This document shows positions 23,143 through 26,989 of a DNA stretch of 52,806 bases, in pieces. Below the pieces are notes generated by a model that saw only the letters and a program-made list of their open reading frames with translations, had not been told where the DNA came from and did not search any database. The position numbers and the translations under genes are program-made. This stretch comes from Bacteroidota bacterium. Lineage in GTDB: Bacteria; Bacteroidota; Bacteroidia; CAILMK01; JAAYUY01. The stretch lies in contig JAYEOP010000021.1 in the NCBI GenBank assembly GCA_034723125.1, forward strand, positions 1 to 52,806, written 5' to 3'. Within the stretch, counting starts at the first letter, position 1. The number at the start of each line of letters is the position of its first letter.

Positions 23143-24567
23143 ATGCTTGAACTATTAAAAATATTACAAGAATTACTCAACCTTGTATTTTTCCTGTTTG
23201 GAATATTTGTTGTCTTTGCATATCTTGCACTAGCGGTAATTTCAGCTTTTGCACTTATACATTATATGCGAAAAAACAGTTTTGTAGATTACAATAAAAT
23301 TCTTTCATCACCTTTTGCCCCATCAGTTTCTGTGATTGCACCTGCTTTTAACGAAGGAAAAACGATTATTGATAATGTTCATGCTTTACTACATTTATAT
23401 TATCAAGATTATGACATTCTTATTGTAAACGATGGAAGCAAAGATGATACACTTAGCAAACTAATAGAATCCTTTTCACTCAAAAAAGTTACTTACGCAG
23501 TTGATTTCAGACTAGAGCATAAAGAGATAATTGGCATATACAAATCTACAAACCAATCCTTTGGGATGTTAACAGTTATTGACAAAAGAAACGGTGGAAA
23601 AGCAGACGCTTTAAATGCAGGTATAAATGTATCAAGAAAAGATGTTTTTGTTGTAATTGATGTTGACTCAATATTAGAACAAGATGCATTATTAAGACTT
23701 GCAAAACCATTTCTTGAACAAAGAGAAAAAACAGTACTCACTTCGGGAAGTGTAATTCGTATTGCAAACTCATGTGAAATAGAAAGTGGGAAAATAATTA
23801 ATGTCAATTACCCTAAAGAATATTTAGCAAAATTTCAGGTTCTTGAATATAATAGATCATTTTTGATGGGAAGAATGGCTTGGGCGAAACTTAACGGACT
23901 ACTACTCATAAGTGGTGCAATGGGAATGTTTAACCGAGATGTAATTATTGACTGCGGGGGTTACAGCACTAAAACAGTAGGTGAAGACATGGAATTAATT
24001 GTTCGTGTAAGAAGACACATGGAAGAAATTAATCAGAAATATGATGTAGTGTATATACCCGACCCTCTTTGCTGGACAGAAGTTCCTACTAGTCTTAAAA
24101 TTCTTGGAAATCAAAGAAACAGATGGACAAGAGGAAACATGGGAACTCTTTTTATGCATCGTAAAATCTTTTTCAATCCACAATATGGAACAATGGGAAT
24201 GTTAGGTTATCCTTATTGGTTCATTTTTGAATGGCTTGCACCTTTAATGGAATTCTTTGGGTTAATATACTTTATTTTCCTTGCTGTAGTTGGTGCCTCA
24301 AACTGGCCGTTTTTCTTAATGCTATTAACATTTGTTTATTCTTTTGCTATAGTATTTTCAACATGGTCAATACTGTTTGAAGAACTTACTTTTGACAGAT
24401 ATAAAAAGAAAACTGACTTAATAAAATTATTCTTTACTGCACTAATTGAACCTTTCCTTTATCATCCATTAACTGTTTTTTGGTCACTTATGGGAAACTA
24501 TGATTATTTCCGTGGCAAAAAAACTTGGGGTAAAATGGAAAGACATGGCTTTACGCATAGTGCATAA
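23143..24567 (+). CDS. Processive family-2 glycosyltransferase (PgaC/IcaA/NfrB/BcsA-type polysaccharide synthase)
   Basis: An N-terminal TM is followed by a GT-A domain with VIAPAFNE, NDGSKDDT, GGKADALN, VIDVDS, GEDMEL and QRNRW (24112-24126). Several C-terminal TM helices follow. It starts 3 nt after the preceding gene. Confidence 0.9.
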   Translation: MLELLKILQELLNLVFFLFGIFVVFAYLALAVISAFALIHYMRKNSFVDYNKILSSPFAPSVSVIAPAFNEGKTIIDNVHALLHLYYQDYDILIVNDGSKDDTLSKLIESFSLKKVTYAVDFRLEHKEIIGIYKSTNQSFGMLTVIDKRNGGKADALNAGINVSRKDVFVVIDVDSILEQDALLRLAKPFLEQREKTVLTSGSVIRIANSCEIESGKIINVNYPKEYLAKFQVLEYNRSFLMGRMAWAKLNGLLLISGAMGMFNRDVIIDCGGYSTKTVGEDMELIVRVRRHMEEINQKYDVVYIPDPLCWTEVPTSLKILGNQRNRWTRGNMGTLFMHRKIFFNPQYGTMGMLGYPYWFIFEWLAPLMEFFGLIYFIFLAVVGASNWPFFLMLLTFVYSFAIVFSTWSILFEELTFDRYKKKTDLIKLFFTALIEPFLYHPLTVFWSLMGNYDYFRGKKTWGKMERHGFTHSA

Positions 24568-24592: not shown

Positions 24593-24810
24593 CACATCCT
24601 GCATCTTGCATCCTGTATCTTGCATCCTGCATCTTGCATCCTGCATCCTGGCATCTTGAATCCTGCATCCTGCATCCTGCATCCTGCATCTTGAATCCTG
24701 CATCCTGCATCCTGCATCTTGAATCCTGCATCCTGCATCTTGCATCCTGCATCCTGCATCTTGCATCCTGCATCCTGCATCTTGTATCTTGTATCTTGTA
24801 TCTTGTATCT
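24593..24810. repeat. Heptanucleotide microsatellite, about 31 units of TGCATCC / TGCATCT / TGAATCC / TGTATCT
   Basis: I parsed it by hand into 31 consecutive units. One is an 8-nt unit (tggcatct, 24649-24656), and the array ends with four TGTATCT units. A recurrent three-unit (21-bp) super-period is visible. Confidence 0.95.
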
Positions 24811-24814
24811 TGCC

Positions 24815-25984
24815 CTACCTTACCTTCTTAATAACTTTCTCAACTTCCTTGATTAGGCTTTGAAAAATTTCATCCTTTTTGCCAAGACCGTCAATATCAA
24901 TAACAGGACTTTGTTTTTTGTAATATTTTAAAATCGGTTGTGTTTTCTTTTCATGTTCCTGTAGCCTTTCAACAATAGTTTCAGTATTAGAATCATATTC
25001 CATTCTGTTTTCTGTTTTTCCCCTTAAAGCCAATCTTTTTACTAATTCTAAATGAGGAACATTAATATTAAAAATACATGAAATTGAAGAATTTATCTTT
25101 AACAGTAGCCCATCAAGAATATATGCCTGAACCATTGTTCGTGGAAATCCTTTAAAAATAAATCCATTTGTATCAGGATTCATTTCAATTCTTTTTTCTA
25201 TCAACTTAATTACAATTTCATCAGGAACCAATGCACCTTTTTCCATTAAACGTTCTACTCTTTTACCAAGTGAAGAAGCTTTTTTGATTTCTTCCTGAAG
25301 CATATCACCTGTCGAAAGATAAGTGAGATTATATTTTTCTGCCAGTATTTGTGCCTGAGTTCCTCTGCCTGCTCCCGGATATCCAAAAATTACAACATTT
25401 AAAAGCACTTTTCTTAAAGCAATTTCAATACTTTCTTGAACTTCTGAAAACACATCTTCAATTTTTCCCGTACCATCAATTCCTATATAATTATTTTTTT
25501 CTTTATAAAATGAAATTACAGGAACAGTTTTGTTGTCATATTCCTTAAGCCTGTTTTGAATAATTTCTTTTGTATCGTCTTTCCTATTTTCTATTTCTGC
25601 TCGTTTCAATAACCTTTTAACAGATTCTTCTTTAGGCACTTCAAGGCTTATTAAACTTGTTAATGAAGAATGTACTCTTAACAAAAGCCCTTCTAAAATA
25701 TAAGCTTGCACCAAGGTTCTTGGAAATCCATCAAATAAAAAACCACTTGATTCAGGGTGCATTTTAATTTTCTTTTCAATAATTTGTACAATTATTTCGT
25801 CAGAAACAAGCCCGCCTTTTTCAATAATATGCTTTGCTTCCAAACCGAGTTCTGTTTTTTCAGCTATTTCTGCTCTCAAAATATCACCGGTTGCAATGTA
25901 AATAAGATTATAATTTTCAATTAACAGCTTTGATTGAGTACCTTTTCCTGCTCCAGGAGGTCCAAATAGTGCAATGTTTAACAT
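24815..25984 (-). CDS. adk: Tandem two-domain adenylate kinase (Adk-Adk fusion); the second domain is divergent at catalytic positions
   Basis: Residues 1-192 form a canonical short-LID Adk (GPPGAGKGT, TGDILR, DGFPRT, R.DD..E.I..R). Residues 193-389 form a second full Adk fold with GYPGAGRGT, TGDMLQ and KGFPRT. No stop separates the two halves. Confidence 0.9.
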   Translation of the reverse strand: MLNIALFGPPGAGKGTQSKLLIENYNLIYIATGDILRAEIAEKTELGLEAKHIIEKGGLVSDEIIVQIIEKKIKMHPESSGFLFDGFPRTLVQAYILEGLLLRVHSSLTSLISLEVPKEESVKRLLKRAEIENRKDDTKEIIQNRLKEYDNKTVPVISFYKEKNNYIGIDGTGKIEDVFSEVQESIEIALRKVLLNVVIFGYPGAGRGTQAQILAEKYNLTYLSTGDMLQEEIKKASSLGKRVERLMEKGALVPDEIVIKLIEKRIEMNPDTNGFIFKGFPRTMVQAYILDGLLLKINSSISCIFNINVPHLELVKRLALRGKTENRMEYDSNTETIVERLQEHEKKTQPILKYYKKQSPVIDIDGLGKKDEIFQSLIKEVEKVIKKVR

Positions 25985-25996
25985 ATCTTTTTTCTT

Positions 25997-26989
25997 TTAA
26001 AATTCATTTAAATTATTCCATAACATATCTTTTAACTCAGCTATTCCCTCTCCTGTAATTGACGAAATAAATACAGAAGGTAAATCAGGAATAAAGTTTA
26101 TTAATTCATTCTTTAATTCATTGTCAAGCAAATCAGATTTTGTAATTGCAAGTATTTTCTTTTTTCCAGCAAGCAATGGATTAAACTTTTTTAATTCATC
26201 AAATAAAGTTTCATAATGATCACTAATATTTAAATGCTCAGCAGATATCATAAAAAGCAAGACAGAATTCCTTTCAATATGTCTTAAAAACCTTAATCCT
26301 AAACCCTTTCCTTTTGACGCACCTTTAATAATTCCCGGAATATCTGCCACTACAAAAGATTTTTCATCCTTGTAATCCACCACACCAACACTTGGAGTTA
26401 AAGTTGTAAACTCATAATTTGCCACTTTTGGTTTAGCTGCAGAAATAACTGACAATAGTGTTGATTTTCCGGCATTGGGAAAGCCAACCAAACCAACATC
26501 AGCCAATAATTTAAGTTCAAGAATAACTTCACTGTATTCTCCTTCTATTCCCGACTGGGAGTAACGAGGTGCTTTACGAACAGAAGATCTAAAATGATAA
26601 TTGCCTAATCCTCCTTTTCCTCCTCTGAGTAAAATTTTTCTTTGATTATGTTCCGTAATTTCAAATAATGGTTTTTCATCATCAATTTTTTTTGCTATTG
26701 TACCCAATGGCACTTCAATAATTCTATCTTCTGCATTTGCTCCTGTTTTTAATGATTTACCTCCACCTTGTCCATTATTTGCAATAACATGCTTCATATA
26801 TCTTAAATGTAATAATGTCCAAAGGTGATTGCTTCCTACTAATATCACATGACCACCTCTGCCTCCATCACCTCCATCGGGTCCACCCTTAGATGTCGTT
26901 TTATCACGATGAAAATGAGACATACCTGGACCTCCTGCTCCCGAACGACAAAATATCTTTATCCTATCTATAAAATCTTGATTACTCAT
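25997..26989 (-). CDS. obg: GTPase Obg/CgtA
   Basis: It has the glycine-rich Obg fold (GGPDGGDGGRGG) and the G1 motif GFPNAGKST, plus DIPG and TKSD. Confidence 0.95.
   Translation of the reverse strand: MSNQDFIDRIKIFCRSGAGGPGMSHFHRDKTTSKGGPDGGDGGRGGHVILVGSNHLWTLLHLRYMKHVIANNGQGGGKSLKTGANAEDRIIEVPLGTIAKKIDDEKPLFEITEHNQRKILLRGGKGGLGNYHFRSSVRKAPRYSQSGIEGEYSEVILELKLLADVGLVGFPNAGKSTLLSVISAAKPKVANYEFTTLTPSVGVVDYKDEKSFVVADIPGIIKGASKGKGLGLRFLRHIERNSVLLFMISAEHLNISDHYETLFDELKKFNPLLAGKKKILAITKSDLLDNELKNELINFIPDLPSVFISSITGEGIAELKDMLWNNLNEF

Follow-up and report, generated by a model that had tools for sequence, protein, structure and literature searches.

The window, the whole stretch of 52,806 nucleotides analysed here, carries on its minus strand a complete R-type tandem (double) adenylate kinase (Adk) gene at positions 24815–25984, encoding 389 amino acids and ending with a stop codon at 24815–24817. 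The ORF is uninterrupted, and a Pfam search matched PF00406 twice in the protein (E = 3e-95), in agreement with an earlier note that had read two complete short-LID Adk domains from the sequence. Domain 1 (D1; residues 1–190, positions 25415–25984, minus strand) is a canonical short-LID Adk. A linker of residues 191–194 (25403–25414, minus strand) connects its C-terminal helix to the first strand of domain 2 (D2; residues 195–389, positions 24818–25402, minus strand), which is Adk-like and has a remodelled active site. When we cut the protein at residue 190 and scored the halves separately against NCBIfam profiles, both passed the cut-off of 187 bits for the adenylate kinase equivalog NF001381, D1 with 218.2 bits and D2 with 193.5 bits. 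An AlphaFold2 model (pLDDT 87.5, pTM 0.69) places a helix at residues 175–190, a four-residue linker and then a strand at residues 195–201, and the order of strands and helices in D2 is that of D1. In the linker region, N196 does not vary among relatives, and 90% or more of them share L190 and K192. A helix with the motif QAYIL(E/D)GL is near-invariant in both domains (residues 93–100 in D1 and 286–293 in D2); it may form a family-specific surface, perhaps the interface between the domains.

Upstream of the double adk lies an ORF for the GTPase Obg (25997–26989, minus strand), which groups in sequence clustering with the obg genes located after adk in sister families. It is separated from the adk start by 12 nt, with no terminator-like site found between the two genes, and the pair is probably co-transcribed. 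Sister families of the order have one adk of about 190 amino acids in the usual hpt–adk–obg arrangement, whereas the window has no adjacent hpt. R-type copies in other genera of the window's family are not beside obg and stand in varying contexts. Copies of a second subtype, the K-type (described below), adjoin a 181-aa gene of unknown function and genes for a DUF3822 protein, an RsmD-like methyltransferase and an MBL-fold protein; the K-type gene of the source genome itself lies upstream of these same four genes. The gene neighbourhood of the double adk is thus uninformative. On the other side, a 7-bp microsatellite (unit CATCCTG, 31 copies, 86% matches; 24595–24813) begins two bases past the adk stop and fills the convergent gap to a glycosyltransferase gene at 23143–24567.

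The source genome is a fragmented metagenome-assembled genome of 620 contigs with 4% contamination, which would favour an artefactual fusion, whether a misassembled tandem duplication, a hidden stop or frameshift, or a decaying pseudogene half. However, 119 of the best 120 relatives in a collection of 5.8 billion proteins have the same double architecture. These relatives are 386–404 amino acids long, nearly all of them 389, are 58–69% identical to the window's protein across its full length, and stem from numerous assemblies made independently. Among them are a copy on a metagenome contig of 2.1 Mb and a copy in a closed, one-contig genome of 3.9 Mb. Because independent assemblies carry the same architecture, a misjoin or hidden stop at the junction, which the earlier note had raised, is very unlikely. 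In addition, D1 and D2 are only 47% identical to each other (189 residues, E = 7e-68), which argues against a recent repeat collapse. Synonymous sites are saturated in most pairs of orthologues, so that only the closest pair yields usable dN/dS values for both domains: 0.044 for D1 and 0.053 for D2. Across all pairs, dN is similar in the two domains. Since D2 evolves as slowly as D1, it has been remodelled and is not decaying, and we give an artefact or a pseudogene half next to no credence. Public sources label these double proteins simply 'adenylate kinase'.

Active-site residues of the two domains

We compiled residue statistics for 128 members of the double-Adk family, using E. coli Adk numbering for positions shared between proteins. 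D1 of the window's protein contains the motifs GPPGAGKGT (residues 8–16), GDILR (33–37), DGFPRT (85–90) and NRKDD (133–137) and carries, in its own numbering, K14, R37, D85, R89, Q93, R124, R128, R134, D136, D137 and R145. The adenylate kinase catalytic set (Walker-A Lys, R36, D84, R88, R123, R156, D158/D159 and R167) is complete in D1. Across the relatives, K13, T15, R36, D84, R88, Q92, R119, R123, R156, D158, D159 and R167 are invariant or nearly so in this domain. The earlier note had called D1 canonical on the first three motifs, a description that holds in the sequence and extends to 128 of 128 relatives for the catalytic residues.

D2 fails the same set, having Arg207, Gln230, Lys278, a displaced Arg327 and Tyr330 at key positions. 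Its P-loop, GYPGAGRGT (residues 201–209, positions 25358–25384, minus strand), has Arg207 in place of the Walker-A Lys; the codon is AGA at 25364–25366, exactly where the earlier note had placed it. In the motif GDMLQ (residues 226–230), Gln230 (CAG, 25295–25297, minus strand) occupies the position of the AMP-site Arg, R36. The motif KGFPRT (residues 278–283) opens with Lys278 (AAA, 25151–25153, minus strand), which replaces the Mg2+-holding Asp, D84. In the short LID, the motif RMEYD (residues 327–331) has Tyr330–Asp331 (24992–24997, minus strand, with the Tyr codon TAT at 24997–24995) where canonical Adks have Asp-Asp, D158–D159. Thus the four substitutions proposed earlier (P-loop Lys to Arg, AMP-site Arg to Gln, Mg-site Asp to Lys and a degraded LID) could all be read in the sequence, and alignment to solved Adks confirmed that they fall at E. 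coli positions K13, R36, D84 and R156/D158.

These replacements are not conserved to the same degree. Two are family hallmarks, namely Lys at D84 in 127 of 128 relatives and Tyr at D158 in 128 of 128. The changes at the other two positions are subtype-specific: position K13 is Arg in 90 relatives, Lys in 36 and Cys in 2, and position R36 is Lys in 65, Arg in 39, Gln in 7 and another residue in 17. R36 is therefore absent from D2 in 89 of 128 relatives, with Lys as its commonest replacement and the Gln of the window's copy in just 7. In most R-type members, the changes at K13 and R36 are charge-conserving swaps (Lys to Arg and Arg to Lys). At position R156 an Arg is retained, either in register or displaced by one residue.

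Most of the remaining site is kept in D2. The P-loop glycines, T15, D61, R119, R123, R167 and D159 are retained in the 128 members (D159 as Asp in 125), position R88 is Arg in 116 and Lys in 11, and Q92, the Gln that specifies adenine, never varies in either domain (128 of 128 in D2). We also compared 135 D1 with 135 D2 sequences column by column at the positions conserved in D1. The only near-invariant changes specific to D2 were D85 to K278, the LID Tyr330 and a conservative replacement of E98 by Asp. The earlier statement that D2 has lost key residues is correct in that the replacements are real; it does not extend to decay, because purifying selection is as strong as in D1 and R88, Q92, R119, R123, R167 and D159 are kept. 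Judged by its sequence, D2 is a nearly complete Adk in which two hallmark replacements have become fixed; it is remodelled and not a decaying copy. As in conserved pseudoenzymes, replaced catalytic residues go together in D2 with persistent purifying selection (dN/dS 0.053).

In P-loop kinases, replacement of the Walker-A Lys by Arg usually preserves nucleotide binding and abolishes transfer. The roles of the two hallmark positions are documented for Adk. D84 holds Mg2+ by way of water and drives the catalytic, Mg-induced rearrangement in which the phosphates are brought together (PMC12648308). D158 forms a bidentate hydrogen bond to R156, and the D158A substitution disorders the R123–R156–R36 arginine stack, loses ligand contacts and favours opening (PMC10778088).

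Subtypes, distribution and history of the fusion

The source genome has a second double gene, also of 389 amino acids, on contig C340 (32004–33173; L018:5005–6174, minus strand), and its product is 55% identical to the window's copy. These two double genes account for all PF00406 matches in the genome. The paralogue is of the K-type: its D2 has the motifs GSPGAGKGT, TGAILR, FKGFPHT and ARNYD, so that the Walker-A Lys and R36 are retained, and it has a His where R88 would be. We rejected the idea that the C340 gene came from contamination, as an R-type and a K-type gene also occur together in three other genomes of the family. Double Adks or contig-end fragments of them are present in each of the family's six genomes, none of which contains a single-domain adk. 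The four most complete (the source genome and three others) have one R-type and one K-type gene each, and the remaining two have a K-type gene and a contig-end fragment.

Beyond this family, the fusion is patchily distributed. Within the window's order (25 genomes, 18 of them at least 90% complete) and within its class (401 genomes), double Adks occur in the window's family alone. By contrast, a sample of 401 genomes from the phylum contained six further carriers, every one in another class, and among 301 genomes of that other class we found 10 carriers from six different families. The fusion that the earlier note had proposed to look for across Bacteroidota is thus present in two classes. The other-class copies are R-type and share 72–78% identity with R-type genes from three genera of the window's family, about the same identity as among those three genera themselves; in the trees of both domains, members of the window's family nest among the other-class copies. 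This patchy, cross-class distribution suggests that the whole fused gene has moved horizontally between Bacteroidota classes. Of the five other-class carriers that we checked, four have a single-domain adk besides the double one (three of the long-LID form and one short form of 188 amino acids), whereas the fifth, a 100% complete genome, has the double Adk only. Because carriers differ in this respect, the fusion can be either an accessory gene or the sole Adk.

The other-class R-type copies lie at loci L022 to L028 in genomes G584, G604, G653, G667, G717 and G749, and in some of them D2 has decayed further. In the first copy of G584 (L022:4354-5526), the P-loop reads GRGYI and the LID lacks Tyr-Asp (NRQLHEEGE). 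In the copy of G604 (L027:4317-5510), the P-loop reads GRSTL and the NMP-binding region has an insertion of eight residues; this protein is the sole Adk of its genome.

To place the two domains, we built trees of D1 and D2 of double Adks together with single short-LID Adks of sister Bacteroidia families. All D1 sequences form one clade and all D2 sequences another, and the two stand jointly beside the single Adks. The stem leading to D2 is longer than that leading to D1 (0.56 versus 0.22), and the D1 and D2 subtrees mirror one another. K-type copies are basal, and R-type copies, including that of the window, form a supported derived clade. From this topology, the likely history began with internal duplication and fusion, continued with D84K and D158Y in D2 and then with duplication of the gene, and ended with K13R and the loss of R36 in one branch. 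Because the K-type D2 is basal and the R-type derived, K13 and R36 of D2 would have become dispensable after D84K and D158Y. The split into K-type and R-type copies and its order, the family's dependence on double Adks and their spread across classes are new here, as is a link to cmk loss that we tested and largely rejected (see below).

Possible functions of domain 2

Textbooks use adenylate kinase as a model of enzyme catalysis and of domain motion, and bacteria cannot do without it. Because the source genome and the whole family lack a single-domain adk, D1 must be the working enzyme: the absence of any other adk from six family genomes points to ATP:AMP phosphotransferase activity in D1 (ATP + AMP = 2 ADP), which would supply the essential Adk activity. 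D2, for its part, keeps the fold, the P-loop glycines and almost every residue that contacts phosphate or adenine, and lacks the two acids on which the ordering of Mg2+ and of the catalytic arginine stack depends (D84, now Lys, and D158, now Tyr). In the R-type copy of the window, Arg has additionally replaced the Walker-A Lys, and Gln the AMP-site Arg. Such a pocket is predicted to be more positively charged and to have no metal site. It probably binds adenine nucleotides, as the invariance of Q92 suggests, or a related polyphosphate ligand without Mg2+, with slow or no turnover, and D2 would then serve as a regulatory partner of D1 that senses energy charge or as a stabilising one.

The main argument for this reading is evolutionary. 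The lineage tolerated the loss of two Adk-essential residues while D2 stayed under tight constraint, as would be expected if D2 had already stopped depending on catalysis. On balance, we lean towards an explanation in which a short-LID Adk of the Bacteroidia type was duplicated internally, once, to give a single chain with two adenylate kinase folds. The most economical reading of its parts, which we hold to be somewhat better than an even bet, is that D1 is a working Adk and D2 a Mg-free, nucleotide-binding pseudo-kinase with a regulatory or structural role. Several observations count against this pseudo-kinase reading. The K-type paralogue keeps K13, R36, R88 (apart from the His mentioned above), R123, an in-register R156 and R167, and its D2 could still catalyse; the added Lys278 could replace Mg2+ instead of marking a dead site; and the kept ligand-contacting residues would be equally expected of an active enzyme. 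The earlier note had offered a pseudo-kinase, a nucleotide sensor or a kinase of altered specificity, of which the first two fit the conservation and constraint best and the third is a doubtful candidate.

That third possibility would make D2 an active phosphotransferase, either independent of Mg2+ with Lys278 standing in for the metal or using a different donor or acceptor, in a bifunctional double kinase like AK5 or AK8. There is precedent in CASK, a protein 'pseudokinase' that lacks the Mg-binding Asp and works without Mg2+. Strong purifying selection on D2, the retention of all phosphate-binding arginines and of the adenine-specifying Q92, and the presence of K13, R36 and R156 in the K-type D2 would all be expected of such an enzyme. 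Lys at D84 and Tyr at D158 are invariant, not variable, and so look like a selected new solution; moreover, the top-ranking match by fold is an axonemal AK with two domains (9fqr_G8). However, the window's R-type copy has Arg for the Walker-A Lys and Gln for R36, and the R-type clade is both derived and large, which implies that the lineage tolerated the loss of two residues essential for Adk catalysis. The P-loop has decayed further in some members, and D158A by itself already disturbs the catalytic geometry (PMC10778088). We therefore consider an active D2 the less likely reading, with K-type copies as its best candidates. More speculatively, and in our estimate unlikely as a whole, D2 could be a Mg2+-free nucleotide or polyphosphate module derived from Adk, with Lys278 at the metal position and Tyr330 propping the arginine stack. 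Such a module might act as a metal-independent phosphotransferase or as a sensor of energy charge (or of alarmones or dinucleoside polyphosphates) that allosterically gates the fused Adk. It would travel from one Bacteroidota class to another and could take the place of the housekeeping Adk entirely.

A different role is brought up by the nucleotide kinases of the window's family. No cmk (TIGR00017) was found in any of its six genomes, which are 84–96% complete, compared with 18 of 19 sister-family genomes of the same order; the sole sister-family genome without a match is 67% complete. PF02224 gave matches only at the level of the P-loop, and no cytidylate kinase, in the five family genomes tested. 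The genes ndk, gmk and pyrH are present in the family, and the thymidylate kinase profile PF02223 matched in none of the genomes tested, nor in a Bacteroides control, which makes this profile uninformative here. One of the family's four Adk-like domains might thus phosphorylate CMP in compensation for the missing cytidylate kinase, a task that UMP/CMP kinases of the AK family perform in eukaryotes. A likelier candidate than the window's copy would be the D2 of the K-type paralogue, and this family without cmk is the only one in which we saw K-type doubles. As a single lineage, however, the family counts as one event, and E. coli tolerates the loss of cmk. Each of the five other-class carriers checked has cmk, so that a general link between double Adks and cmk loss failed an independent test and was largely rejected, and the D2 hallmarks predate cmk loss and do not depend on it. 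The adenine-specifying Gln is conserved in every D2, which argues against a cytidylate substrate. Against the UMP-CMP kinase profile (TIGR01359, cut-off 207.6 bits), D1 scores 138.5 and D2 122.5 bits, and both domains have Gln, not Asn, at the base-specifying position, placing them outside that family. We regard a CMP kinase role as improbable and retain the reading of D2 as a pseudo-kinase partner of a working D1.

D2 has the fold and the profile score of an Adk without its catalytic set, and is better called Adk-like than filed as a catalytic Adk; the automatic annotation 'adenylate kinase' hides this second, non-canonical domain. The double proteins represent a widespread, natural and apparently unstudied form of bacterial Adk, in which a second fold has its Mg-anchoring Asp replaced by Lys and its LID Asp by Tyr and is nevertheless tightly constrained. 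As the double Adk is the only Adk in some lineages, it amounts to a natural experiment on the catalytic contributions of the Mg site and of the D158–R156 clamp, on how a housekeeping enzyme gains a pseudo-enzyme partner and on whether Adk can incorporate a sensor of energy charge.

Comparison with known adenylate kinases and pseudoenzymes

Both halves of the double protein resemble the bacterial short-LID Adks, such as those of Thermus thermophilus (3cm0) and M. tuberculosis (2cdn and 1p4s) and the single enzymes of the sister families, in fold and in passing NF001381, and Foldseek matched each domain to 2cdn and 8pvw at TM scores of 0.88–0.90. D1 shares every catalytic residue with these enzymes and is a member of their family. 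Unlike them, the double Adk has two domains per chain, and the Mg-site Asp and first LID Asp are missing from its D2, as are, in the window's copy, the Walker-A Lys and the AMP-site Arg. The helix that reads QAxALDxL in the sister-family single Adks reads QAYIL(E/D)GL in the domains of the double Adk. A literature search for bacterial tandem or pseudo-Adk proteins found no paper.

Two AK folds in one polypeptide are likewise found in eukaryotic AK5 and AK8 and in the axonemal protein 9fqr_G8. AK5 and AK8 have been reported to be active in both domains. When the double Adk is compared by Foldseek over its whole length, the axonemal protein ranks first, with a sequence identity of only 21%. In the sampled multi-AK proteins of the eukaryote type, the motif is of the DGFPR kind and never KGFPRT. 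Among the 150 best representatives from a library of 1.8 billion proteins, many of them eukaryote-type multi-AK proteins, KGFPRT is confined to the bacterial double-Adk family. In the trees, the D1 and D2 clade stands beside the Bacteroidia single Adks, a placement at odds with common descent with the eukaryotic tandem AKs. The likeness to eukaryotic multi-domain AKs drawn in the earlier note therefore holds for the architecture, and on phylogeny and motifs the resemblance is convergent, with an independent bacterial origin.

Another parallel is offered by pseudoenzymes and pseudokinases that are fused to an active paralogue, in which catalytic residues are likewise replaced under strong constraint with an active copy adjoining. 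Compared with pseudokinases such as CASK, the double Adk differs in having the fold of a P-loop NMP kinase, not that of a protein kinase, and the inactivity of its second domain is a prediction.
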